Below, piece by piece: positions 7,847 to 26,149 of a stretch of 32,000 nt of DNA (the first letter of the stretch is position 1; each line of letters opens with the position of its first letter). The notes under the pieces were generated by a model, which searched no databases, had not been told where the DNA came from, and saw only the letters and a program-made list of their open reading frames with translations. The position numbers and the translations under genes were made by a program. This DNA is from Acaryochloris marina S15 (GTDB taxonomy: Bacteria; Cyanobacteriota; Cyanobacteriia; Thermosynechococcales; Thermosynechococcaceae), in NCBI RefSeq assembly GCF_018336915.1, contig NZ_CP064923.1, forward strand, positions 2,520,001 to 2,552,000, given 5' to 3'.

Positions 7847-9313
7847 GTAAGCGTAAATATCCTACATTAAAAGCCTAATTCTCAAGCAGCTTTTTCTTCT
7901 TCAGGAAGAACTAAATCTAGCCAATTATCACTCCATTCATTACTGATCATACTCGCCCTGATTTGCAAGACATTATGGGCACCTACCCGAGTCCATTGCA
8001 TCTTCTGCTTCTTTTTATGGCGAGCATTAATGAGGGTGTCAATATGAGATTCTGCAACTTGACTGGTATAAGCTAGCCCCGCTTTATCTCGCTCGTCATA
8101 ATTGACAAGATATTCACTGTTATTCTTTAAGTAATCGTATAAGCCTTTGAGCTTTGTTTGCTTCTTCTCATCTGAAATGTTGTCTCGAAGCATGGCAATC
8201 TTCTGCAGAGCATCATCTACTTTTCCATGCCATAAACTCCCCTTCGCACTATCGAGGGATTCTGCAAAGGTTTCACCCAGTGCATTGCTGACATTTCGGA
8301 ATTTCTTGCCGATATGAAACCAGTCCAAGATCAGCTCTAATGCTTTGCAATGAGGCTCAAGAACTGAGATGACTGACCAGCAGTTGCTAGCACCATCGGC
8401 CAAGGCAGTGACCTGTGTCTCTTCTGTCATCCCTTGTTTAAGTGCCGCATGATGCAGATAGGTCTTGATGGTTTGCAACTCATCCTCTAAGGCGGAAACA
8501 ACACAAGTCTTTTCCGTAATTTGGCGATGATGTTTATCAACTACTTCAATGGCACTAGGACGATAAACGATGCCAGATAAGGCTTCAAAACTGCGCTTGT
8601 CTTTATCTTTGGTAGGAATATGACCCCCATCGACTTGAGCAATGAGTTCTGCTGCCGGGGTGGGTAACTCTTCTTGATCTGGAGGGGTAGTGTTCGCTTG
8701 AGATAAACGCTCACCGACTTGATTGGTCACGTTTTTGATTTGGACATGGTTATTCACACTCCGGCGCTGAGCATTCAGCCGCTCCATATTATCCTGAGCT
8801 TCTCGATAGCTATGCAAGGCACCATTCTCACATTGCAGTTTTACTAAGTCAGGATGAGTATCTGTGCCAAAGACGCTCAACACCGATGGCATACTTTGCC
8901 ATCGACACTCAGGATTCTTGCACCGATGTTTTTGGATACGGAGTTTATGATCGCTGAAGACGGCATGGAATGTAGATGGTTGAAAACCAAGCTTGCCTAT
9001 TTTCCCACCACATTTGATGCACTGCGTAACTCCAGTATCGATGAGGGTAGATTGTTCGGATAACAGAGCACTTTGGACTTTGGAAAGCAGAGAGATTTGT
9101 TCTTCGTGACGCAATCCTAGATCTAGAATAGATTCTGGTTGCTTGATGTCATAGATTTTTAGAGTGTCTCGTTTAACGACTTCCTGAGTGGTAACCGAAA
9201 CTTTCTCCACAATCACTCTAAATTCGTAGTCCATCTCTCACCGTTACTCTCGAACCTCTGCAAGAGATAGAGTAACACTAAAAACTTGAATAATGTACAA
9301 AAATTACGCTTTC
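7847..9313 (-). mobile_element. IS copy 2 (1,467 bp)
   Basis: Same ends as copy 1 in reverse complement (GTAAGCGTAAATATCCTAC at 7847; ...AAATTACGCTTTC ending at 9313). Confidence 0.85.
7882..9234 (-). CDS. IS transposase, 450 aa (identical to 637-1989)
   Basis: The ORF-track protein is identical to that of copies 1 and 3. Confidence 0.9.
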   Translation of the reverse strand: MDYEFRVIVEKVSVTTQEVVKRDTLKIYDIKQPESILDLGLRHEEQISLLSKVQSALLSEQSTLIDTGVTQCIKCGGKIGKLGFQPSTFHAVFSDHKLRIQKHRCKNPECRWQSMPSVLSVFGTDTHPDLVKLQCENGALHSYREAQDNMERLNAQRRSVNNHVQIKNVTNQVGERLSQANTTPPDQEELPTPAAELIAQVDGGHIPTKDKDKRSFEALSGIVYRPSAIEVVDKHHRQITEKTCVVSALEDELQTIKTYLHHAALKQGMTEETQVTALADGASNCWSVISVLEPHCKALELILDWFHIGKKFRNVSNALGETFAESLDSAKGSLWHGKVDDALQKIAMLRDNISDEKKQTKLKGLYDYLKNNSEYLVNYDERDKAGLAYTSQVAESHIDTLINARHKKKQKMQWTRVGAHNVLQIRASMISNEWSDNWLDLVLPEEEKAA

Positions 9314-10030: not shown

Positions 10031-11497
10031 GTAAGCGTAAATATCCTACATTAAAAGCCTAATTCTCAAGCAGCTTTTTCTTCTTCAGGAAGAACTAAAT
10101 CTAGCCAATTATCACTCCATTCATTACTGATCATACTCGCCCTGATTTGCAAGACATTATGGGCACCTACCCGAGTCCATTGCATCTTCTGCTTCTTTTT
10201 ATGGCGAGCATTAATGAGGGTGTCAATATGAGATTCTGCAACTTGACTGGTATAAGCTAGCCCCGCTTTATCTCGCTCGTCATAATTGACAAGATATTCA
10301 CTGTTATTCTTTAAGTAATCGTATAAGCCTTTGAGCTTTGTTTGCTTCTTCTCATCTGAAATGTTGTCTCGAAGCATGGCAATCTTCTGCAGAGCATCAT
10401 CTACTTTTCCATGCCATAAACTCCCCTTCGCACTATCGAGGGATTCTGCAAAGGTTTCACCCAGTGCATTGCTGACATTTCGGAATTTCTTGCCGATATG
10501 AAACCAGTCCAAGATCAGCTCTAATGCTTTGCAATGAGGCTCAAGAACTGAGATGACTGACCAGCAGTTGCTAGCACCATCGGCCAAGGCAGTGACCTGT
10601 GTCTCTTCTGTCATCCCTTGTTTAAGTGCCGCATGATGCAGATAGGTCTTGATGGTTTGCAACTCATCCTCTAAGGCGGAAACAACACAAGTCTTTTCCG
10701 TAATTTGGCGATGATGTTTATCAACTACTTCAATGGCACTAGGACGATAAACGATGCCAGATAAGGCTTCAAAACTGCGCTTGTCTTTATCTTTGGTAGG
10801 AATATGACCCCCATCGACTTGAGCAATGAGTTCTGCTGCCGGGGTGGGTAACTCTTCTTGATCTGGAGGGGTAGTGTTCGCTTGAGATAAACGCTCACCG
10901 ACTTGATTGGTCACGTTTTTGATTTGGACATGGTTATTCACACTCCGGCGCTGAGCATTCAGCCGCTCCATATTATCCTGAGCTTCTCGATAGCTATGCA
11001 AGGCACCATTCTCACATTGCAGTTTTACTAAGTCAGGATGAGTATCTGTGCCAAAGACGCTCAACACCGATGGCATACTTTGCCATCGACACTCAGGATT
11101 CTTGCACCGATGTTTTTGGATACGGAGTTTATGATCGCTGAAGACGGCATGGAATGTAGATGGTTGAAAACCAAGCTTGCCTATTTTCCCACCACATTTG
11201 ATGCACTGCGTAACTCCAGTATCGATGAGGGTAGATTGTTCGGATAACAGAGCACTTTGGACTTTGGAAAGCAGAGAGATTTGTTCTTCGTGACGCAATC
11301 CTAGATCTAGAATAGATTCTGGTTGCTTGATGTCATAGATTTTTAGAGTGTCTCGTTTAACGACTTCCTGAGTGGTAACCGAAACTTTCTCCACAATCAC
11401 TCTAAATTCGTAGTCCATCTCTCACCGTTACTCTCGAACCTCTGCAAGAGATAGAGTAACACTAAAAACTTGAATAATGTACAAAAATTACGCTTTC
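10031..11497 (-). mobile_element. IS copy 3 (1,467 bp)
   Basis: Same ends as copies 1 and 2. Confidence 0.85.
10066..11418 (-). CDS. IS transposase, 450 aa (identical to 637-1989)
   Basis: The ORF-track protein is identical to that of copies 1 and 2. Confidence 0.9.
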   Translation of the reverse strand: MDYEFRVIVEKVSVTTQEVVKRDTLKIYDIKQPESILDLGLRHEEQISLLSKVQSALLSEQSTLIDTGVTQCIKCGGKIGKLGFQPSTFHAVFSDHKLRIQKHRCKNPECRWQSMPSVLSVFGTDTHPDLVKLQCENGALHSYREAQDNMERLNAQRRSVNNHVQIKNVTNQVGERLSQANTTPPDQEELPTPAAELIAQVDGGHIPTKDKDKRSFEALSGIVYRPSAIEVVDKHHRQITEKTCVVSALEDELQTIKTYLHHAALKQGMTEETQVTALADGASNCWSVISVLEPHCKALELILDWFHIGKKFRNVSNALGETFAESLDSAKGSLWHGKVDDALQKIAMLRDNISDEKKQTKLKGLYDYLKNNSEYLVNYDERDKAGLAYTSQVAESHIDTLINARHKKKQKMQWTRVGAHNVLQIRASMISNEWSDNWLDLVLPEEEKAA

Positions 11498-11590
11498 ATT
11501 GCTGTCTCCATTCCTCTGACTAATGCACAGAAGTTTAGAGGTTGGCCTGGTCTGGTTAGGGGGAATGACCTGTCGAAATGATGGTTAGGG

Positions 11591-12167: not shown

Positions 12168-12548
12168 ATGATAGAAATCAGATGGCTGGAGAAGGATATC
12201 AGTATGACTTATGTATGTGAATTAGGCCCCGGCCACAGCATGTACCTTGACAACCAAGGTGCTCAGACCTTAGTCACTTTAATGATGGGTACTCCTGGAC
12301 AACAACAACAGTCTAGTAATAGTTTTGGAACAGGCTGTTGGACAGCTCCACCTGAAATTTATCGAACGCCCCAAGAATTCGTCATTAAAGTAACCACTAC
12401 TCACGGTGAGCAGTTTATCCAAGTGCAGGGCAGCAGCATGATTAGTATGACGAGCATCCCATCTTTGCAGAAGTCTCAACAGATACAAATAAACCTAAGT
12501 GAGGCGATCCCCTCTATTTCTGGTAGTGTCGCAAAAATAGAGTGTTGA
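12168..12548 (+). CDS. hypothetical protein whose 3' end is supplied by the IS6 left IR (probably truncated)
   Basis: ORF track (12162-12548), first ATG at 12168. The last 9 codons (SGSVAKIEC*) lie inside IS6 copy A, which starts at 12522. Confidence 0.3.
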   Translation: MIEIRWLEKDISMTYVCELGPGHSMYLDNQGAQTLVTLMMGTPGQQQQSSNSFGTGCWTAPPEIYRTPQEFVIKVTTTHGEQFIQVQGSSMISMTSIPSLQKSQQIQINLSEAIPSISGSVAKIEC

Positions 12549-13365
12549 CCGATAGACAGTGGTAAATTGAGAGGCTCTGTTCCTTTTCTCTCCCATCAAT
12601 GAAAACTACTGATCTGTTCAAATGGCGTCATTACCAATCTGAGATCATCCTGCTCAATGTTCGTTGGTATTGCCGTTATCCCCTCAGCTATAGAAATTTA
12701 GAAGAGATGATGATAGAGAGGGGCTTAGAGGTGGATCACAGCACCATCAATCGGTGGGTTCTCAAATATTCTCCTGAGCTAGACAAGCGCTGTCGTCGGC
12801 ATCTCAAGCCTACCAATGATTCTTGGAGAGTTGATGAAACTTACATCAAAATCCGTAAAAAGTGGCGATACCTATATCGAGCCGTAGACTCTGATGGCTA
12901 CACCCTCGACTTTTTACTCACAGCAAAGCGGGATGCTAAGGCTGCGAAGCGCTTTCTGACTAAAGCACTGAATGCCGTTCATACCCATGAACCTCGGGTG
13001 ATCAATGTGGACAAGAATCCAGCATATCCTCCTGCTGTTGAGCAGTTACAGGAAGAGGAACGTATCCCTGAAGGAGTAAAAGTACGGCAGGTAAAATACC
13101 TCAATAATATAGTGGAGCAAGATCATCGTGGCATTAAAAGTCTCGTGAACCCTGGTATGGGATTTGGATCGTTTAACTCGGCTAGACGAACCTTAAAAGG
13201 GTATGAAGCGATGAACATGATCCGTAAAGGTCAGATCAAAAATGTGGGCAAAGATGATGTGGTAGGACAGATCTCTTTTATCAATCAAATCTTCGGATTA
13301 GCTGCATAGTCTCGGATAGAAATCTGAGGAGTTTTGTAACTGGAAGCATTTTTTGCGACACAACC
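12522..13365 (+). mobile_element. IS6-family IS, copy A (844 bp, boundary +/-1)
   Basis: Boundaries come from comparison with copy B. IRs are GGTAGTGTCGCAAAAA (left) and GGTTGTGTCGCAAAAA (right, reverse complement), resembling the IS26-type GGCACTGTTGCAAA end. Confidence 0.9.
12599..13309 (+). CDS. IS6-family transposase, 236 aa
   Basis: MKTTDLFKWRHYQSEIILLNVRWYCRYPLSYRNLEEMMIERGLEVDHSTINRWV...WRVDETYIKI...YLYRAVD is a typical IS6/IS26-like sequence. Confidence 0.95.
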   Translation: MKTTDLFKWRHYQSEIILLNVRWYCRYPLSYRNLEEMMIERGLEVDHSTINRWVLKYSPELDKRCRRHLKPTNDSWRVDETYIKIRKKWRYLYRAVDSDGYTLDFLLTAKRDAKAAKRFLTKALNAVHTHEPRVINVDKNPAYPPAVEQLQEEERIPEGVKVRQVKYLNNIVEQDHRGIKSLVNPGMGFGSFNSARRTLKGYEAMNMIRKGQIKNVGKDDVVGQISFINQIFGLAA

Positions 13366-16300
13366 ATCATTACTGAACGAGATATCTTGCAATTACAAAC
13401 CTTAGGGATTCCTACGACCACTACATTCGTTGAGCAGGTCATGAGTAGCCCACTATTTTTTGTCGATCCTAGAGATAGCCTGTGGTCGGTTTATCAACAA
13501 ATGCATCACCATCACATCCGCCGCATGGTGGTGGTTGATTCAAATAATAGTAATCATCTCTTGGGGATTGTCAATCAAGATGATCTGCTCCATTTATTCG
13601 ACCCATTGGCGATGAATGAGACCCCGCAAGTACAGGTTGAGCCGTTTAAACAAGAAAAAATCAACCTATTGCAGGACTGGAATCATGGCTTGGAACAGCA
13701 ACAACAGTTGCTAGAGGATATTATCCTTGCCAAGGATCGAGCCCAGCTATTGGAACAACAGAATCTTCGACTTCAACAGGAAATTAAAGACAAGGAGCAA
13801 GCAGAAGCAGAATTAAACCAACAAATTGAGCAGGAAAGGCTACTACGACTTATTACCCAAGACATTCATAGCACCAGAGATATTAAGGAACTGCAGTCTC
13901 TTGTTGTCAATCAAGTCCGTCAGACGGTTAGGGCAGATCGAGCTTTGCTGTTTCGCTTAATGCCAGGAGGGGGAGGCATCATTCTTGAGGAATCTGTTCT
14001 CCCTAGCTATCCTGCTATGGAAGAGCTAGATGGTGAAGATCAAGATTTCCCACCTGAATGCTATGAGTTTTATCTCCAAAGAAAACCGCGAATCGTTTTG
14101 GACTTACACCAAGACGACTGGAGTCATTGCTTAAAACAATTCTGGATGCCAGCCCAGGTCAAATCTAAGATTGTGGCCCCCATTGTGCAATCCCAAAATC
14201 ATGGCCACAAAAGGTTATGGGGGTTATTAGTGGTTCATGCCTGTGACTATCCTCGGGTATGGCAGCCAGATGAAGCTTTATTCCTGCAGCAAGTGGCCAA
14301 TCAATTTGCAGTTGCGATTCAACAAGCTGACTTAGCTATACAGTTACAGCAAGAATTAGTAGAACGGCAACAGAGCGATCTAGCTCTAGCTCAAGAGTTA
14401 CAACGATCGCAGCTTTTAGGTAAAATCACTCAGAAAATCCATGAAAGTCTGGATAGCCTTCATGTTTTTGAAACGGCAGTAGTAGAAATTCGTCGCGCTC
14501 TTAAAGCGAGTCGATGCAACATTTTTGTCTATAGTGCTGTGGATGACCCTCATTTCTCTTTGATGTTCCATGATTATGAAGCAGATTATCCAGACCAAGG
14601 ACCAGAGATTGTCCGCTTAGCCGATCATGAGTATGTGCGGCAACTGGCAAACCAACCAGAAGCAATTGCCAGCCCCCAGGCTCAATCCGATCCATTATTG
14701 GTAAGTTGCTTGCCAATGGTTGAAGCCCTTTCCATTCAATCTATGGTTAGTATTCGCACGTCTTACCAAGGCAATGTGAATGGAGCGATTACGATTAGCC
14801 AATGCGATCGCATCCGGGATTGGACCCCCGAGGAATTAGACTTACTCACTGCAGTCGCCACAGAAGTGGGCATTGCCCTAGCCCACGCCAACTTACTCAC
14901 CCAAGAACTCCACCAGCGAGAACAACTCTCTCAAAAGAACCAACAACTACATACTGAAATCGAAGAGAAGAAACAAACACAGACCCTTCTCAAACTCGTG
15001 ATGGATTCCATTCCTCAAGCCATTTTTTGGAAGGACAGAACCTCTCGCTATTTAGGGTGTAATCGTGCTTTTGCCAAAGAAGCGGGTTTTAACACTGCAG
15101 AAGAGATTATTGGCAAAACTGACCAAGAGATGCCTTGGCCACCGGAAGAAGCAGAATGGTATCGGCTTTCTGATCTAGAAGTCATAAACTCCAACCAACC
15201 CCAATTCCATGTCCTTGAAACTCAGCTACGCGCCGACGGGACAAAAACGTGGATGGACACCAATAAAGTCCCTCTTCATAACCCTAAAGGAAAAGTGGTA
15301 GGGGTTTTGGGAACTGCCGAAGATATTACAGAGCGGATTCAGGTCGAAGCCGAGTTGCAGCAACAACTCCAACGAGAACAGGTCTTATCCGAAATTACCA
15401 ACCAAATTCGTCAGAGCCTCGATCTGGACATCCTTTTAAAATCTGCAGTAGAACAGCTCTGTGCTTTATTCCAAGTCAGTCGGTGTTCCTTTTTTACTTA
15501 CACTGACCAGCCCAACCCTCAACTCGTACTCTCTGCCCAAGCCTATTCACAGCCAGAATGGGAAGCTGCTCTTTCTCATCCCCTCCTCACCTCAGATCAT
15601 CCTCGTCTTTTAAAGTTACTTGCGAATGATCGAGTTCGCCCTGTGTCTGATATTTGGCAAGAGCCTAGTCTGGCGACATCAGAAAAAGAAAGCCTGTCTT
15701 CTACCCTAAGAATTAGAGCCTATCTCAGCGTTAGAACAGCCTTTAAAAATCATCCAAATGGCATTATATTCCTCGACCAATGCGAGCGCAGACGGAATTG
15801 GACCAAAGATGAAGTCTCTTTATTGGGAACAGTTGCAGCCCAGCTAGGGATTGCTGTTGCCCATGCTGATTTATTAGCGGATGAACAGAAGCAGCGTCAG
15901 GACTTAAAACTTCAGAACCGCCGCCTGCAGGAAGAGATCGCCCATCGAAATCAGGCCGAGAAAGCATTAGCAAAGCAACTCGAAAAAGCTGAACTGTTAG
16001 AGAAAATTGTTCAACAAATTCGGCAAAGTCTTGAACCACAGTTAATTTTCCGCACTGCCGTGACTCAGGTACGACAATTACTAGCTGCAGATCGCGTCTG
16101 CATCTATCGATTTATAGAGGATACGGACCACGCCCAAGGCATGATGGTCGCAGAAGAAGTACTCCCAGAGTTTCCATCTGCCCTGACAGCCCATGTGCGA
16201 GACCGATGCTTTGGTGACCAATATGCAAATCGTTATCAGAGCGGTCGCTTCCAGGCTGTTGCCGATATTCATGAAGCTGGCCTTAGTGATTGCCATATTG

Positions 16301-18045
16301 AAATTTTGGCCCAGTTTCATATCCGTGCCAACTTAGTTCTGCCCCTACTCCAGGGAGATAACTTATGGGGATTGCTCTGTATTCATCAATGTTCAGGGCC
16401 GCGATCTTGGCAGCCGGATGAAATAGAGTTTGTGCAGAAGATTGCCAATCAACTGGGTATTGCCCTATATCAAGCTGAACTCCTGCTTAAAGAACAGCAT
16501 CAACGCCATGTCTTATCGGTTCGAAGCCAAGAATTGACCTTCAACAATCAACAGTTGGCGGCCGCTAAACAAGAAGCTGAAACAGCTCAGAAAAAAGCAG
16601 AGCAGGCGAATCGAGCCAAAAGTACATTTCTGGCAAATATGAGCCATGAATTGAGGACACCCTTAAATGCCATCCTAGGTTTTAGCCAGTTGATCAGTCG
16701 TGACCCCAGTACCCCGAACTATCAGCTAGAACAACTAGAAATTATTAATCGTAGCGGTGAACATCTGCTGGCCTTAATTAACGATGTCCTCACCATGTCC
16801 AAGATTGAAGCAGGACGTTCTTCTCTCCACTCCCAAATTGTAGATTTACCGTTGCTTCTGGATACTGTGGAAAGTATGCTCGGGATTAAAGCGAAGCAAA
16901 AAAGGCTGACACTGCTAATTAACCGTGGGCCTAACCCACCTCAGTACATTCGGACAGACCCCGGAAAACTCCGACAGGTATTAATGAATTTACTGAGTAA
17001 TGCCATTAAATTTACCACCAGTGGTCATGTCCAGCTGCACCTGGAGCCCAGTGCCTTAGACACTTCTGAGAGTTCAGATGCACCTCCATTACTAGAGCTG
17101 CGGTTTACAGTGACAGATACAGGGTCCGGCATTGCCCCAGAAGAACTTAAGTTGTTATTTGAGCCGTTTGCCCAGACAGAAACGGGGCGTCAATCCCAAG
17201 AAGGAACAGGCTTAGGATTGGCTATTAGCCGTCAATTCGTACAGCTGATGGGCGGAAATTTGACTGCCCAGAGTATCCATAACCAGGGCACAACTTTCAC
17301 CTTCAATATTGTGGTTGAAAAAGTTCTACAGCAAAAGCAATCTCTCTCTCATCGTCAGTTCATGGGGTTATTACCAGATCAACCTCAATATCGAATTCTG
17401 GTAGTGGAAGATAATATGGATAGTCGTGAATTGTTAGTAACCCTACTAGAAACTATTGGTTTTACGGTTAAGGCAGCTAAAAATGGTGAAGTAGCCGTTA
17501 CACTATGCCAAAGCTGGCAACCTGATTTAGTCTGGATGGATTTGCGACTACCTATCCTAGACGGATTGAGCGCTACGCGTTTGATCAAGCAAATGGAGAA
17601 TCCCCCTGTCGTCATTGCCTTAACAGCTAATGCCTTTGATGAAGATCGTGACTTGGCACTACGAGCAGGATGTGATGATTTCGTTCATAAGCCTTATCGA
17701 GAAGCAAGTATTTTCGAAAAAATGGCTCTACATTTAGAGGTGGAGTATCATTACCAAGATAAAGTACCTCTCAAATCAACGATTCCCACCTTAAATGTGG
17801 ACCATCTAGCTCAAATGCCTCATCCTTGGCTAGTTCAATTACATCAAGCGACTAATAATCTCGACCAACATATGGTGGAACTGCTCCTCGATGAGCTTGA
17901 TGATACTGCTCAGCCATTGCAAGAAGCTCTCAGACATTTAGTATACGAGTTTCGTTATGACGAAATTCTAGCGGTTACGCATCCTCTCATTTCACCTCTT
18001 CCTCAGGACTCCACGGAACAGAGTCCTCAAAATGGGAATGGGTAA
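13366..18045 (+). CDS. hybrid sensor histidine kinase / response regulator, 5'-truncated by IS6 copy A (CBS - coiled coil - GAF - GAF - PAS - GAF - GAF - HisKA - HATPase - REC - C-terminal helical tail)
   Basis: H-box MSHELRTPLN (His codon 16645-16647). ATPase boxes LLSNAIKFT, DTGSGI and GTGLGLAIS. Receiver RILVVEDN...LVWMDLRLP (Asp codon 17539-17541)...HKP. The frame reads TIITERDILQLQ (end of a CBS motif) directly from the IS6 right IR. The first possible starts are TTG 13387 and ATG 13441. Confidence 0.85.
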   Translation: MITERDILQLQTLGIPTTTTFVEQVMSSPLFFVDPRDSLWSVYQQMHHHHIRRMVVVDSNNSNHLLGIVNQDDLLHLFDPLAMNETPQVQVEPFKQEKINLLQDWNHGLEQQQQLLEDIILAKDRAQLLEQQNLRLQQEIKDKEQAEAELNQQIEQERLLRLITQDIHSTRDIKELQSLVVNQVRQTVRADRALLFRLMPGGGGIILEESVLPSYPAMEELDGEDQDFPPECYEFYLQRKPRIVLDLHQDDWSHCLKQFWMPAQVKSKIVAPIVQSQNHGHKRLWGLLVVHACDYPRVWQPDEALFLQQVANQFAVAIQQADLAIQLQQELVERQQSDLALAQELQRSQLLGKITQKIHESLDSLHVFETAVVEIRRALKASRCNIFVYSAVDDPHFSLMFHDYEADYPDQGPEIVRLADHEYVRQLANQPEAIASPQAQSDPLLVSCLPMVEALSIQSMVSIRTSYQGNVNGAITISQCDRIRDWTPEELDLLTAVATEVGIALAHANLLTQELHQREQLSQKNQQLHTEIEEKKQTQTLLKLVMDSIPQAIFWKDRTSRYLGCNRAFAKEAGFNTAEEIIGKTDQEMPWPPEEAEWYRLSDLEVINSNQPQFHVLETQLRADGTKTWMDTNKVPLHNPKGKVVGVLGTAEDITERIQVEAELQQQLQREQVLSEITNQIRQSLDLDILLKSAVEQLCALFQVSRCSFFTYTDQPNPQLVLSAQAYSQPEWEAALSHPLLTSDHPRLLKLLANDRVRPVSDIWQEPSLATSEKESLSSTLRIRAYLSVRTAFKNHPNGIIFLDQCERRRNWTKDEVSLLGTVAAQLGIAVAHADLLADEQKQRQDLKLQNRRLQEEIAHRNQAEKALAKQLEKAELLEKIVQQIRQSLEPQLIFRTAVTQVRQLLAADRVCIYRFIEDTDHAQGMMVAEEVLPEFPSALTAHVRDRCFGDQYANRYQSGRFQAVADIHEAGLSDCHIEILAQFHIRANLVLPLLQGDNLWGLLCIHQCSGPRSWQPDEIEFVQKIANQLGIALYQAELLLKEQHQRHVLSVRSQELTFNNQQLAAAKQEAETAQKKAEQANRAKSTFLANMSHELRTPLNAILGFSQLISRDPSTPNYQLEQLEIINRSGEHLLALINDVLTMSKIEAGRSSLHSQIVDLPLLLDTVESMLGIKAKQKRLTLLINRGPNPPQYIRTDPGKLRQVLMNLLSNAIKFTTSGHVQLHLEPSALDTSESSDAPPLLELRFTVTDTGSGIAPEELKLLFEPFAQTETGRQSQEGTGLGLAISRQFVQLMGGNLTAQSIHNQGTTFTFNIVVEKVLQQKQSLSHRQFMGLLPDQPQYRILVVEDNMDSRELLVTLLETIGFTVKAAKNGEVAVTLCQSWQPDLVWMDLRLPILDGLSATRLIKQMENPPVVIALTANAFDEDRDLALRAGCDDFVHKPYREASIFEKMALHLEVEYHYQDKVPLKSTIPTLNVDHLAQMPHPWLVQLHQATNNLDQHMVELLLDELDDTAQPLQEALRHLVYEFRYDEILAVTHPLISPLPQDSTEQSPQNGNG

Positions 18046-18253
18046 GCTAAAAGTAGATATAGGAACTTTATGGAGAAGGAATTTCCCAATTCTTAAATAC
18101 CCCTTTGTCTCAATCTATTTAGCTCGCTCCTGCAAAGAATGGCTTGGGAATGTCTTATCGTCAGTCAAAAGTCATCAATAACCGAAAGTCCTTGATAGGT
18201 GGCCAGCTATATACCTAGTAAAGCCCTATATCCAATAATTGAATATAGTGTTA

Positions 18254-18276
18254 TTTTTGAATATATATTTCAAAAA
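18254..18276. promoter_or_regulatory. candidate PadR operator: palindrome TTTTTGAA-N7-TTCAAAAA
   Basis: 8-bp arms at 18254-18261 and 18269-18276, ending 15 nt before the PadR start codon. It overlaps direct TTGAATATA repeats at 18239 and 18257. Confidence 0.35.
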
Positions 18277-18290
18277 CATCTAGCGCTGCT

Positions 18291-18620
18291 ATGTCAGAAT
18301 CCAACTTGCGTTTGACGCCTAATCAAGAGGTTATCTTAGCGGCCTTACGATTACATCGACGCTATGGTCTTGAGATTCTGGCTGCGATTGAAAATAGTGG
18401 GGGGAAACAGATTGGTTTTAATTCCCTCTATCCCAATTTAAAGAAATTAGAGAAGAAAGGACTCGTCCAGTCTGAATGGGGGGATGAGCAGCCAGAAGAG
18501 CATAGTGGGGCAAGACGAAAATACTACCGTATTACTGCTGTAGGCATCAGAGCATTAGATGTCAAACAACAGCTGCTAGCTGAGGTAGCAGTCTGGATAC
18601 CTGAAACGGAAGGGGCATGA
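18291..18620 (+). CDS. PadR-family transcriptional regulator
   Basis: Winged-helix pattern YGLEILAAIE...SLYPNLKKLEKKGLVQSEW...ARRKYYRITAVG. Confidence 0.85.
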   Translation: MSESNLRLTPNQEVILAALRLHRRYGLEILAAIENSGGKQIGFNSLYPNLKKLEKKGLVQSEWGDEQPEEHSGARRKYYRITAVGIRALDVKQQLLAEVAVWIPETEGA

Positions 18621-18621
18621 A

Positions 18622-19557
18622 ATGAATGAGAAGGATTTAAAACTCGCAGAAAAAACAGGGCAGTTTGTCCGTCGTTTTCCCGATATATGGCAGGAGTATC
18701 AGGACTGGTTAAGAGCTATTGTCTCTTCTCAGGAAAAACTACAACAACGATATTCAGAGGGGGTAGCAAGTCTGATCTTTCGATGGCGGTTGCTGTATTT
18801 TGGCATCTATATGTTTGGGATGGTGGGACGGAAAACCGTAGCTCAGATTCTCACCCAGTTATCCAGACCTCAACAAACAAATAATGGTCCTATCGTTAAG
18901 CAGGGAGCGATCGCAACTCAATCCCTACAAATTAATCGCACCTATTTTATCCTGCAACGAATAGCGACACTTCTAGCAGTGGCGGAATTGACTCTATGTG
19001 GTCTAGCAGCAATGACGGGAGTCATGCTGGCATTCTACTATCAGCCGACAGCGGTAGGGGCTCATGCATCCTTGCATGCGATCGCATATCAGATCGTCAA
19101 CGGCAATCTCATCCTCAGTCTGCATAACATCGCTGGGAATGGCCTGATTGTTCTCGCATTAGTCCAAATTGTCGTCATGTTTTTGGGACGGCAGTTTATG
19201 AGATCTTGGTTAACCGCCTGGATTAGCGGAATTTGCCTAGCACTAGCAACAATAGGCCTCAGTTGGACAGCCATTATTCTCAATTGGGACCAGGTCGGTT
19301 TCTGGCGATTCAAGATTGAGCTCAATATTATTGGCTCTTTACCCGCAGGCTCATTTCTACGGGAGGTACTGGCTGGCGGGAGTGCCATTAATACCCTGAC
19401 CCTTCAACATATGTATACCTTGCACAGCTACGTACTTGCGATCGCAGCCTTGCTCCTATCCGTTATCCATCTCACTGCCCATATCCTCCAAGAAAAATAT
19501 TGGGCTCAAACTGCTCCTGAAAGCTGGCATTCTTCAGAAGATACAAGCACGATCTAA
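18622..19557 (+). CDS. membrane protein with a cytochrome b6 (PetB)-like four-helix core and a ~115-aa N-terminal extension
   Basis: The ATG is 1 nt after the PadR stop codon. The core aligns by eye to PetB: FYYQPT, SLHNIAGNG (PetB SIHRWSAS), WISGICLAL...LNWDQVGFWRFKI (PetB LPWDQVGYWAVKI), MYTLHSYVL...VIHL. Confidence 0.7.
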   Translation: MNEKDLKLAEKTGQFVRRFPDIWQEYQDWLRAIVSSQEKLQQRYSEGVASLIFRWRLLYFGIYMFGMVGRKTVAQILTQLSRPQQTNNGPIVKQGAIATQSLQINRTYFILQRIATLLAVAELTLCGLAAMTGVMLAFYYQPTAVGAHASLHAIAYQIVNGNLILSLHNIAGNGLIVLALVQIVVMFLGRQFMRSWLTAWISGICLALATIGLSWTAIILNWDQVGFWRFKIELNIIGSLPAGSFLREVLAGGSAINTLTLQHMYTLHSYVLAIAALLLSVIHLTAHILQEKYWAQTAPESWHSSEDTSTI

Positions 19558-19593: not shown

Positions 19594-20160
19594 TTAATCG
19601 AGCCACTGGACTCCATTGCCAGACGTAGGGGGACAGTCATCAATCTGATTAGGCTCTGAAGTCGCAGGCATTTCTTCATTAGGATCGAATTGAATAAACG
19701 GATTAACGCTAATATCCGTGAGACTATCTGGATCAACAATCATGTATGGCGGTTCCCCAATATGTTCAGGGTAAAACTGCTCTACAAAAAAATCCAAGGT
19801 GGCTTGGCGAATATAGCCATTCAAAACAGCAAGGGCTCCAAACCGTAACCCCGTCTTTTGCTGAGCTGCCAAAATAGCGTCGACCATATTTCTATCAATC
19901 AGTCCAGCCCGACGTAAATAGCTACCAATGGGAACTGGATCTGCTTGAGTATCGGGGTAAGGCCACTGATCACCAAAAAAGTCAGCCGTTTGCTGTTGCA
20001 CCCATCCATGCAGAGTCAGAATCTCACCTAACCGCATCATTTCATAGAGTCGCTGCTCATACAGAGCAGTTTCCAACTGATGGGCTGAAATCAGATCTGA
20101 TGCACACAATCGCTCACCGATTTTGTGAGAATTTTGAATGAGGGTGGGGCCAATGGTCAT
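19594..20160 (-). CDS. protein with two tandem MshEN / T2SSE_N-like domains (possible c-di-GMP receptor)
   Basis: There are four 24-residue segments fitting (R/K)(L/I/F)Gxx L..xx(G/D)(L/W/Y)(I/V)xxxx(L/V)xxx(L/F)xxQ: KIGERLCASDLISAHQLETALYEQ, RLGEILTLHGWVQQQTADFFGDQ, PIGSYLRRAGLIDRNMVDAILAAQ, RFGALAVLNGYIRQATLDFFVEQ. Confidence 0.6.
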   Translation of the reverse strand: MTIGPTLIQNSHKIGERLCASDLISAHQLETALYEQRLYEMMRLGEILTLHGWVQQQTADFFGDQWPYPDTQADPVPIGSYLRRAGLIDRNMVDAILAAQQKTGLRFGALAVLNGYIRQATLDFFVEQFYPEHIGEPPYMIVDPDSLTDISVNPFIQFDPNEEMPATSEPNQIDDCPPTSGNGVQWLD

Positions 20161-21734: not shown

Positions 21735-22787
21735 ATGCAAAACTACGGTAACCCTGAAGTTACCTATGGCTGGTGGGCGGGTAATTCGCGCGTAGCCAGC
21801 TCTTCAGGTTTATTTATTTCTGCCCATACGGGTCATGCTGGCTTGATATCGGTGTGGGCGGGTGGTTTTACATTATTTGAGCTAAGTCGCTACACCACTG
21901 ACTCTCCCATGTGGGACCAAGGTCTCGTTCTCCTCCCTCATTTGGCCGCAGAGGGCATTGGCTTCGGTTCAGGTGGAATCCTGGATGATCCTCAACAGCT
22001 GGTTGCCGTGGCTATGGTCCACATCATTGCAGGGGCTGTATTAGGGGCTGGAGCGCTGTTTCATCTCTTAAAAGCTCCCTTAGATTTAAGTGATGCCTCC
22101 GGTGCAGCTCGCACCTACCATTTCGAATGGGACAATACCACTAAACTCGGTCGAATTTTAGGCCATCATCTCCTCATTTTGGGCTTGTATACCCTCCTAT
22201 TTGTGGGTTGGGCCATGTATTGGGGAGGACTCTATGACCCTGATTTGCAAGAAGTCAGGTTGGTCACAGATCCCACCCTCAGTCCATCTGTTATTTTTGG
22301 CTATCAAACCCATTTCGACAGTGTTGACAATTTGGAAGATATTGTCGGTGGCCATATCTTTATTGCTGTCCTAGATATTGTCGGTGGGATTTTCCACTTG
22401 CTCGTTCCCATGTTGCCTTGGGCCAAGAAGCGAGTTCCTGTCAATGGGGAAGCAATCTTGTCCTATTCCTTAGGAGCAGTGGCTTTCTTCGGTTTCCTGT
22501 CCGCCTATTGGTGTTCGGTCAATACCTATATTTGGCCAGAAGAGTTTTATGGACCTGCTTTGCAAATCGAGTTTGGCTTTACGCCCTACTTTGCAGATAC
22601 GGTAGATCTCCCCTACGGCATCCATTCCGCTCGATGCTGGCTTTCGAATACAACCTACATCTTTGCTTTCTATTTTCTCCAAGGTCATCTTTGGCATGCC
22701 TTGAGAGGGCTAGGCTTTAACTTTCGATCAGTCGATCACTTTCTCAATTCTTTGACCGACGAGCAGCTGGCAGTCAAACCAAAGTAA
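21735..22787 (+). CDS. isiA: IsiA/Pcb-family (CP43-like) chlorophyll-binding antenna protein
   Basis: [38 protein letters not shown]... and the C-terminal ...[20 protein letters not shown] are hallmark IsiA/CP43' sequences. There is a GGAGA Shine-Dalgarno sequence upstream, and a flavodoxin gene follows. Confidence 0.9.
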
Positions 22788-22980: not shown

Positions 22981-23493
22981 ATGTCACAAATCGGAATGTT
23001 CTTTGGCACCACCACTGGCAAAACAGCAGAAGCTGCTGAAAAGATCCAAGAGGCCTTTGGGGGTGAAGATGTTGTCACACTCATTGAAATCCCAGATGTC
23101 GAAGATGGAGACTTTTCTAGTTACAATTTCTTGTTGATTGGTTCTCCAACTTGGGATATCGGTGAGCTGCAAAGTGACTGGGACGCTTTTTTCCCTAATT
23201 TAGACAGCATTGACTTTTCCGGTAAGAAAGTGGCCTACTTTGGTACAGGCGATCAGGTGGGCTATGCCGATAACTACATGGATGCCATCGGCATGATTGA
23301 GGCAAAAATCACTGAGAAGGGCGGCCAAACCGTTGGCTATTGGTCAACGGATGGGTATGAGTTTGATGGCTCCAAGGCAGACAGAGGAGGAAAATTTTGT
23401 GGGTTAGCCCTGGATGAAGATAACCAGTCTGAACTCTCTGATGAGCGCATAGAGGCTTGGGTTGCCCAAGTTAAAACAGAATTCGGAATATAG
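22981..23493 (+). CDS. isiB: long-chain flavodoxin
   Basis: MSQIGMFFGTTTGKTAEAAEKI (FMN phosphate loop TxTGxT), ...LLIGSPTW..., 170 aa, immediately downstream of isiA. Confidence 0.9.
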   Translation: MSQIGMFFGTTTGKTAEAAEKIQEAFGGEDVVTLIEIPDVEDGDFSSYNFLLIGSPTWDIGELQSDWDAFFPNLDSIDFSGKKVAYFGTGDQVGYADNYMDAIGMIEAKITEKGGQTVGYWSTDGYEFDGSKADRGGKFCGLALDEDNQSELSDERIEAWVAQVKTEFGI

Positions 23494-24948: not shown

Positions 24949-25055
24949 CGACCCAGCTTTTAACTCAGTCTTGCTCGCCAGCAGCGGTTTCAATCAAGCA
25001 CCCTTCGTCAAGGATTGGACGATCTTGAGAGATTCGTCAATATGGCCTTGGAAGT

Positions 25056-25899
25056 GGTTGTGTCGCAAAAAATGCTTCCAGTTACAAAACTCCTCAGATT
25101 TCTATCCGAGACTATGCAGCTAATCCGAAGATTTGATTGATAAAAGAGATCTGTCCTACCACATCATCTTTGCCCACATTTTTGATCTGACCTTTACGGA
25201 TCATGTTCATCGCTTCATACCCTTTTAAGGTTCGTCTAGCCGAGTTAAACGATCCAAATCCCATACCAGGGTTCACGAGACTTTTAATGCCACGATGATC
25301 TTGCTCCACTATATTATTGAGGTATTTTACCTGCCGTACTTTTACTCCTTCAGGGATACGTTCCTCTTCCTGTAACTGCTCAACAGCAGGAGGATATGCT
25401 GGATTCTTGTCCACATTGATCACCCGAGGTTCATGGGTATGAACGGCATTCAGTGCTTTAGTCAGAAAGCGCTTCGCAGCCTTAGCATCCCGCTTTGCTG
25501 TGAGTAAAAAGTCGAGGGTGTAGCCATCAGAGTCTACGGCTCGATATAGGTATCGCCACTTTTTACGGATTTTGATGTAAGTTTCATCAACTCTCCAAGA
25601 ATCATTGGTAGGCTTGAGATGCCGACGACAGCGCTTGTCTAGCTCAGGAGAATATTTGAGAACCCACCGATTGATGGTGCTGTGATCCACCTCTAAGCCC
25701 CTCTCTATCATCATCTCTTCTAAATTTCTATAGCTGAGGGGATAACGGCAATACCAACAAACATTGAGCAGGATGATCTCAGATTGGTAATGACGCCATT
25801 TGAACAGATCAGTAGTTTTCATTGATGGGAGAGAAAAGGAACAGAGCCTCTCAATTTACCACTGTCTATCGGTCAACACTCTATTTTTGCGACACTACC
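25056..25899 (-). mobile_element. IS6-family IS, copy B (844 bp, boundary +/-1), inverted relative to copy A
   Basis: Same IRs as copy A. At least one difference was seen: 25759 A versus the complement of 12662 C. Confidence 0.9.
25112..25822 (-). CDS. IS6-family transposase, 236 aa (R22C relative to copy A)
   Basis: ORF track. The protein is identical to 12599-13309 except NVRWY versus NVCWY. Confidence 0.95.
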   Translation of the reverse strand: MKTTDLFKWRHYQSEIILLNVCWYCRYPLSYRNLEEMMIERGLEVDHSTINRWVLKYSPELDKRCRRHLKPTNDSWRVDETYIKIRKKWRYLYRAVDSDGYTLDFLLTAKRDAKAAKRFLTKALNAVHTHEPRVINVDKNPAYPPAVEQLQEEERIPEGVKVRQVKYLNNIVEQDHRGIKSLVNPGMGFGSFNSARRTLKGYEAMNMIRKGQIKNVGKDDVVGQISFINQIFGLAA

Positions 25900-26149
25900 T
25901 GAATTTGAATTGGCTCAAAGCAAATCGACTCAAACCGAATCACTGATAACACCCGATCTTGCTCATTCGCTAACTTCACCAAAGCCACAATCAGCACTTT
26001 TGACCATAAATCTCGGACTCAAGCATGGCCTGTTGTTGACCATAAACGGGCTTCCCTTAAATAGTCAAAAATCCAACTAGCTAGCCCCATTGGGATGAGT
26101 TGATGTTGGTATGTGCAACAATCAATACACCGCAAACACTTGACGAACT

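Follow-up and report, generated by a model that had tools for sequence, protein, structure and literature searches.

The window analysed here, a stretch of 32,000 nucleotides from Acaryochloris marina S15 (contig NZ_CP064923.1, positions 2,520,001 to 2,552,000), contains a gene for a regulator of the PadR family that is followed at once by a gene for a membrane protein resembling cytochrome b6 (PetB). A sequence-only reading of the window, made without database searches, had singled out this pair, and here we examine both genes, their products and their upstream region by profile searches, structure prediction with AlphaFold2 (AF2) and comparison with other genomes. The features of the two genes are, in window coordinates:

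18291-18620, + strand: padR, coding for a 109-amino acid, single-domain winged-helix regulator of the PadR family without Cys (Pfam PadR match)
18608-18615, + strand: GGAAGGGG, resembling a ribosome-binding site for the cytochrome-b-like gene and lying within the final padR codons
18622-19557, + strand: cytochrome-b-like gene, 311 amino acids (open reading frame and Pfam Cytochrome_B match)
18622-18831, + strand: three-helix module of its product, residues 1-70 (AF2, profile search)
18832-18960, + strand: variable basic linker, residues 71-113, with five Lys or Arg and no Asp or Glu
18961-19491, + strand: cytochrome b6-like four-helix core, residues 114-290 (PF00033, PF13631, phmmer, Foldseek)
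19123-19125, 19165-19167, 19423-19425 and 19468-19470: codons for the ligand positions H168, Q182 (CAA), H268 and H283, respectively

The two genes are nearly contiguous, the padR stop codon TGA (18618-18620) being separated by the single base A18621 from the ATG at 18622, which agrees with the 1-nt spacing given in the sequence-only reading. The regulator matched Pfam PF03551 with 60.9 bits (cut-off 27, E=1.2e-16) over residues 15-89. Among 20 distinct cytochrome b-linked pairs, PadR was always 109 amino acids long and the gap between stop and ATG was exactly 1 nt in 18, with a purine-rich motif of the (G/A)AGGGG type found 6-12 nt 5' of the ATG in most of the pairs (locus L028 is an exception). 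PadR identity was 68-92% across orthologous loci and, in ten of eleven cyanobacterial genome loci, a 72-92% identical PadR ended just 5' of the cytochrome b gene. The cytochrome-b-like protein itself shares 97% identity with one from Acaryochloris sp. 'Moss Beach', and this region of the window is syntenic with A. marina MBIC11017, at approximately 84% DNA identity. The same gene order also occurs in Lusitaniella, Pleurocapsa and metagenome contigs, where the remaining neighbours all differ. In loci coding for proteins with the complete architecture (hereafter long forms), padR was always immediately upstream wherever both genes were present and padR had its usual position. A survey of this linkage across genomes, as proposed in the sequence-only reading, thus found it conserved, and padR and the cytochrome b gene constitute a conserved two-gene module across many cyanobacteria. 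Two loci deviated in detail: a metagenome contig carries 2.5 kb inserted between padR and the cytochrome b gene, and there the cytochrome b match begins only at residue 42 (L040:452-3000), and the long form of Symploca contains an insertion of ca. 36 amino acids within the conserved QHMY motif (L010:5001-6026).

The core of the second protein matched Pfam Cytochrome_B (PF00033) over residues 124-285 with 75.7 bits (cut-off 27.2, E=5.6e-21), and PF13631 with 58.1 bits. Its closest solved relatives were cytochrome b6 chains (1q90_B, E=6e-24 in phmmer searches against the PDB), and the top ten Foldseek matches of the AlphaFold model were likewise all cytochrome b6 chains; the full-length model, with a pLDDT of 71.5 and a pTM of 0.39, was used for secondary structure and fold only. 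The homology to PetB, which the sequence-only reading had asked to be checked by HHpred or Foldseek, is therefore borne out by Pfam, phmmer and Foldseek. In structures of the b6f complex, His86 and His187 ligate heme bp, and His100 and His202 ligate heme bn. When aligned by phmmer to Chlamydomonas PetB (1q90_B), residues H168, H268 and H283 correspond to His86, His187 and His202, while Q182 takes the place of His100, the same pattern that had been deduced earlier from residue spacing. Each of these four residues was invariant in a set of 121 long-form relatives that are 53-97% identical; the change from His100 to Gln thus defines the family, and is not a peculiarity of one protein. The sequence-only reading therefore holds for both ligand and linkage, because Gln occupies the His100 position family-wide and the association with padR is kept in other genomes.

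Further n-side traits of PetB are lost as well. The equivalent of Arg103 is Val in the long-form family, and those of Arg83 and Arg87 are Leu and Asn. We found no Cys in residues 100-125 that could correspond to the heme cn Cys35, the nearest one, C126, aligning with PetB Cys43. Features retained from PetB are the cd-loop motif of the p side, LNWDQVGFW (LPWDQVGYW in PetB), an invariant Gly133 equivalent to Gly51, and the FYY-P-T motif. The protein also scored well below the thresholds of the NCBIfam models for cytochrome b6 (PRK03735, 89.2 bits against a cut-off of 325) and cytb_ExtP (96.9 bits against 290), and tblastn with a PetD-like protein retrieved no PetD-like gene from the window or any of the long-form loci. 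Accordingly, it departs from cytochrome b6 proper in its set of four heme His, in Cys35 and in the partnership in cis with PetD and Rieske. Non-cyanobacterial relatives from the same scan mostly have His at the His100 position, and a few have Arg; the latter was seen in metagenome-assembled genomes of Acidobacteriota and Gemmatimonadota (L021, L022 and L026). Two other residues, E122 in helix A and R190, are invariant specifically in the long forms, being Ile and Glu in the short forms described below; speculatively, they may be part of a coupling path.

In bc1 complexes, mutation of the ligand corresponding to His100 abolishes the n-side heme and leaves the p-side heme in place, so that a single heme of the bp type would be expected here. 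With the n-side bn site dismantled by the change of His100 to Gln, the Val at the Arg103 position and the lack of Cys35, the ligand pattern suggests that the protein is most likely a one-heme cytochrome and not a quinol oxidoreductase.

The N-terminal region preceding the core consists of two parts. AF2 predicted helices at residues 3-16, 20-43 and 46-81 for the module, with a pLDDT of 85-92, and ten of its residues are invariant (W23, Q27, W29, L30, F53, W55, R56, L57, Y59 and F60). The linker is poorly conserved and of variable length, and its model falls below a pLDDT of 50 at residues 84-100. The module had no matches in Pfam, NCBIfam, PDB or Foldseek searches. Using a profile of it against 1.8 billion representative proteins, we retrieved 34 matches. 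Those not belonging to the cytochrome b family were proteins of 80-270 amino acids in which the module is C-terminal, behind two or more hydrophobic helices, and which lack a cytochrome b domain; the named ones are hypothetical proteins of Coleofasciculus. The module is hence combined with a cytochrome b core, with hairpins of two transmembrane (TM) helices or with larger multi-TM proteins. All five sampled genes for standalone module proteins were located directly downstream of a padR gene, one of them with the same 1-nt spacing; in the fifth, the C-terminus of PadR is cut by the contig edge, and 39 of 45 residues are identical to a known PadR. The PadRs beside these other module proteins are 49-53% identical to the PadR of the window and form one clade.

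In all, the module goes with PadR rather than with the cytochrome b core, because unrelated module proteins follow padR while the short PetB-like forms have neither module nor padR. No other observation speaks more strongly for the module as the part of the membrane protein that would interact with PadR. It also strengthens the proposal in the sequence-only reading of a regulator paired with a membrane partner, since the module accompanies PadR even on unrelated membrane proteins.

The N-terminal extension was earlier described as soluble, which is plausible, and the AF2 model includes a hydrophobic third helix (46-81). The uncharged run of this helix has a median of 15 residues in the long forms and 11 in the standalone partners, which end about a dozen mostly basic residues beyond it. 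In the window protein, Lys and Arg number eight in the module, five in the linker, two in the BC loop and none in the AB loop. Most simply, module and linker would lie in the cytoplasm, and helix A would insert from the cytoplasmic (n) side like its counterpart in PetB, so that the altered heme bn site would share one face with PadR and the module. We also considered helix 3 (residues 49-70) as a true TM helix, with the module outside the cell, but this is unlikely given the short uncharged run, its basic flanks and the cytoplasmic location of PadR.

Upstream of padR we identified the following elements:

18227-18247, no strand assigned: inverted repeat TATATCCAATAATTGAATATA (consensus TATATCYATTWWTTRGATATA), candidate PadR operator, from an alignment of 12 orthologous promoters
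18244-18249, + strand: TATAGT, a putative promoter element resembling a -10 hexamer and overlapping the right arm of the candidate operator
18254-18276, no strand assigned: palindrome TTTTTGAA-N7-TTCAAAAA of the sequence-only reading, present in the window
18257-18265, + strand: third half-site TTGAATATA, repeating the right arm in direct orientation 18 nt beyond it, with conserved columns TT-RGATA

We searched for the inverted repeat across the loci, in 424 kb and allowing up to four mismatches, and found it 59-88 nt upstream of padR in the window and in all 30 loci with enough upstream sequence, except L052; only three other matches, all weak, appeared in the 424 kb. The window contains a single occurrence, where chance would give 0.01. 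Among these loci are the paralogous PadR systems, which carry the variant TATATTCA-N5-TGAATATA upstream. The sequence GATATAGTG is conserved in most orthologous promoters, and a consensus promoter scan detected no full -35/-10 promoter at the TATAGT site. The repeat overlaps the conserved TATAGT, and autorepression by PadR at this site would be the natural inference.

The palindrome TTTTTGAA-N7-TTCAAAAA had been reported 15 nt upstream of padR; it exists, at 14 nt from the ATG, and its left arm is overlapped by the third half-site. As an operator it was discarded, because none of 11 orthologous promoters conserves the right arm TTCAAAAA, and it is probably a lineage-specific feature or a chance match in AT-rich DNA. 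The conserved candidate operator is situated 27 nt farther upstream.

The comparisons also uncovered a set of 120 short PetB-like proteins of 196-232 amino acids (P0165-P0284), encoded for instance at L043:1661-2284, L045:2989-3612, L058:5001-5618, L059:5001-5699, L060 and L061. These begin just ahead of helix A and lack the N-terminal module, and no padR was found near their genes at the five loci examined. At the His100 position they have Glu (67 sequences), Gln (51) or Ser (2), and never His, and the other three His are kept in 119-120 of the 120. In a rough neighbour-joining tree, without support values, long and short forms were reciprocally monophyletic sisters, with PetB outside. The short forms occur in many cyanobacteria, among them Chamaesiphon, Coleofasciculaceae, Trichocoleus, Funiculus and Leptothermofonsia, and one is labelled Sericytochromatia. 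In two of the loci (L045:2497-2979 and L058:4506-4988, one of them from Chamaesiphon minutus), a subunit-IV-like gene with a PEWY motif lies directly 5' of the short-form gene; its product matched TIGR01156 with 154 bits, above the cut-off, and the order, petD-like and then petB-like, is the reverse of canonical petBD. These two pairs may represent a second b6f-like module without heme bn. In another locus (L059:2687-4912), a multi-PAS histidine kinase with HisKA and HATPase domains is encoded directly upstream of the short form, a second link of this cytochrome b clade to a signalling protein.

Our preferred reading, to which we assign a probability of about 0.5, is that padR and its neighbour form a self-contained, autoregulated, two-gene signalling module with a cytochrome b6-derived input domain. 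PadR would bind the conserved inverted repeat over its own promoter. The second gene, translationally coupled to padR, would provide a cytoplasmic three-helix module dedicated to that PadR clade and a cytochrome b6-derived input domain, in which the p-side heme site (His168/His268) would be kept and the n-side, cytoplasm-facing bn site dismantled. A change in the core, be it the redox state of the remaining heme, quinone or quinol, or heme occupancy, would reach the module via the linker and helix A, and the module would hold or release PadR at the membrane and thereby set transcription. The more general part of this proposal, an autoregulated repressor with a membrane partner whose N-terminal module faces PadR, we consider quite probable. 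A role of the cytochrome b core as input, or sensor, is favoured because the same chassis of PadR and module occurs on minimal TM hairpins, which are hardly enzymes, because the core has lost ligands of hemes bn and cn and has no subunit IV in cis, and because the remodelling concentrates on the face that the module and PadR would occupy. Sensing of heme or redox, as advanced in the sequence-only reading, is something that we purely infer. More tentative still, and somewhat against the odds, is the specific version in which a cytochrome b6 paralogue has become a transmembrane redox sensor (for the plastoquinone pool, heme or a gas) acting directly on a repressor via a previously unrecognised PadR-binding domain, with the Gln/His pair at the former bn site as the signal-generating centre on the cytoplasmic face.

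Several observations weigh against this interpretation. Leptolyngbya PCC 7375 contains a long form without an upstream padR (L006:4500-5000). The module, whose contact with PadR is putative, is not detectably a HAAS domain, the partner of PadR in comparable systems (see below). H283, equivalent to His202, is invariant despite the loss of its partner ligand, which a simple model of a lost heme leaves unexplained; opposite Gln182 it could hold a five-coordinate heme or act with another ligand. Arg83 of PetB, a propionate partner of heme bp by analogy with bc1, is replaced by Leu in most members, so that the p-side heme itself may be bound otherwise or not at all. Lastly, the operator is known only at the promoter of the pair, which could control itself alone.

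The last point also suits the main rival explanation, in which PadR itself is the sensor of a small molecule, like PadR and LmrR, and de-represses the operon, with the cytochrome b protein as its output, for example an electron carrier or sink induced in the membrane under stress or a protein handling heme or quinones, and the module serving as negative feedback or as a tether for PadR. Many PadR regulators are known to control an adjoining detoxification or transport gene, with Listeria examples in PMC6624303, and the strong conservation of the p-side heme ligands and the cd-loop motif is as expected for a working redox protein. We nevertheless regard this explanation as rather unlikely, because the same PadR clade and module are found with minimal two-TM proteins that have no plausible catalytic role, which points to a regulatory class of partners, and because this PadR is a minimal protein of 109 residues without Cys or any extra ligand-binding domain.

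Two other explanations are less likely. The TM domain could be a scaffold that has lost its cofactors and senses membrane or envelope stress, in the manner of LiaF, PspC or the FtsW-type domains of HAAS-PadR systems; the loss of heme-contact residues (His100, Cys35, and the Leu and Val at the positions of Arg83 and Arg103) would suit it, as would the plain TM hairpins of other module proteins and the moderate AF2 confidence of the core, but the invariance of the three ligand His in 121 long forms, and in 119-120 of 120 short ones, as well as that of Gly133, is hard to explain without a cofactor, making it improbable. Even less credible is that the protein is a spare PetB of a b6f-type complex, with PadR unrelated or merely a transcriptional neighbour, in spite of public records that name such proteins 'cytochrome b6' or 'cytochrome bc complex cytochrome b subunit' and of the short-form sisters that adjoin a bona fide subunit-IV-like gene: its 89 bits are far from the NCBIfam cut-off of 325 for cytochrome b6, one heme ligand and the heme cn Cys are gone, no petD-like gene exists at any long-form locus, and the extra N-terminal module is tied to PadR.

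The surroundings of the pair in the window include other genes of potential interest. A 1552-amino acid hybrid sensor kinase (13387-18045, + strand), recognised from its translation by a C-terminal half resembling histidine-kinase and receiver domains, has its end 245 nt ahead of padR; the arrangement is syntenic in A. marina MBIC11017. Convergent with the cytochrome b gene is a gene for a 188-amino acid protein (19594-20160, - strand) with two cyclic-di-GMP-binding motifs of the MshEN type (NCBIfam NF053729, E=9e-20), which is kept downstream in Acaryochloris-level relatives (L002, L003, L005 and L031). At 2.2 kb downstream of the pair there is a classical iron-stress isiA-isiB unit, with an isiA-like gene (21735-22787, + strand), the IsrR antisense RNA (22128-22305, - strand; Rfam match of 96 bits) and a flavodoxin gene (22981-23493, + strand). 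Its association with the pair was discarded as a general feature because synteny is limited to Acaryochloris, being present in A. marina MBIC11017 and absent outside the genus. Two copies of an 854-nt insertion sequence (IS) with a DDE_Tnp_IS240 transposase (12513-13366 and 25055-25908), 100% identical and in inverted orientation, bracket an 11.7-kb block comprising the hybrid kinase, padR and the cytochrome b gene, the MshEN-like gene, isiA, flavodoxin, a hydrolase and a Crp regulator, a layout that resembles a composite transposon. The window also contains three identical insertion sequences of 1.47 kb (556-2024, 7847-9313 and 10031-11499), each with a 450-amino acid UPF0236-like protein.

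The conversion of membrane redox state into gene expression in cyanobacteria is still only partly understood and, to our knowledge, the routes described run through histidine kinases or thiol switches. A repressor tied one-to-one to a remodelled cytochrome b6 in a conserved operon is a directly testable, kinase-free candidate; if the cytochrome b6-derived sensor were real, it would represent a kinase-free path from the photosynthetic or respiratory membrane to transcription, and a new cyanobacterial family of PadR-partner signalling systems. Interest in the pair would rise sharply if redox- or heme-dependent control by PadR held. Independently of the signal, the unannotated module marks a family of PadR-partner systems in cyanobacteria, and the comparisons bring out a large clade of PetB paralogues, seemingly unstudied, in which Glu or Gln replaces a heme ligand. 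In the clades of long and short forms, hundreds of public entries labelled 'cytochrome b6' or 'bc complex subunit' are probably mis-annotated.

The nearest known counterparts are the HAAS-PadR-like winged helix-turn-helix dyads (Ravi et al., mSystems 2024, PMC11237479), proposed as an alternative to two-component systems. In them, a PadR gene accompanies that of a membrane protein in which a small helical HAAS domain (PF22564, overlapping DUF1700) is joined to diverse TM or sensor domains (PMC11237479). Likewise, we found a standalone PadR gene next to, and followed by, a partner gene, both for cytochrome b and for other partners, and a small alpha-helical, putatively cytoplasmic domain on variable multi-TM inputs; the three-helix architecture, with a turn resembling (G/K)xP ahead of helix 3, is also similar. 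Unlike these dyads, the paralogous module systems have the module C-terminal to the TM segments, and all module-system sequences that could be traced to an organism were cyanobacterial; furthermore, a cytochrome b input domain is absent from PMC11237479. The claim in the sequence-only reading that such a pair is not described needs to be qualified accordingly: dyads of PadR and a membrane partner are published, and the cytochrome b partner is not mentioned there (PMC11237479). More generally, we did not find in the literature a description of a PadR-cytochrome b pair or of such a PetB paralogue, an absence that is provisional and weakly established.

Five negative tests led us to discard the module as a HAAS domain (PF22564/DUF1700/DUF1129/DUF1048). 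None of 32 N-terminal sequences matched PF22564 at E<=10, while a DUF1700-like control did so at 7.6e-21; hhalign against six real HAAS sequences (DUF1700-like seed) gave a probability of 0.15%, in a comparison set small enough for a very remote relationship to be possible; a profile search of the PDB did not retrieve DUF1048; Foldseek with an AF2 model of the module alone gave 0 matches; and NCBIfam contained no model for it. Among PadR repressors that lie beside, and control, a membrane protein gene, Listeria LstR/Lmo0421 and others provide examples (PMC6624303), and the Listeria pairs are cited as HAAS-PadR dyads (PMC11237479). They differ in having a TM partner like FtsW/RodA, and not a cytochrome b, as well as in phylum and partner domain.

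With respect to PetB of the b6f complex (PDB 1Q90, 1VF5 and 7R0W), helices A-D align over approximately 160 residues with 24-30% identity, and His86, His187, His202 and the FYY-P-T and PWDQVGYW-type motifs are kept. The long forms differ in the change of His100 to Gln, in those of Arg83, Arg87 and Arg103 to Leu, Asn and Val, in the lack of Cys35, in the additional N-terminal region of 113 amino acids, in having no adjoining petD or Rieske gene, and in a score far under the NCBIfam cut-off for cytochrome b6. Membrane redox and quinone sensing is known from the Qo site of b6f with the Stt7/STN7 kinase, and from the quinone-sensing kinases ArcB and RegB. The analogy with these is functional, in that a membrane redox component reports the state of electron transport to a regulator; they use kinases, whereas the cytochrome b fold would here act straight on a DNA-binding repressor. 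In all, the logic of a PadR with a membrane partner is known, and what is new is the cytochrome b6-derived input domain with Gln for a heme ligand and the unannotated PadR-associated domain that accompanies it.

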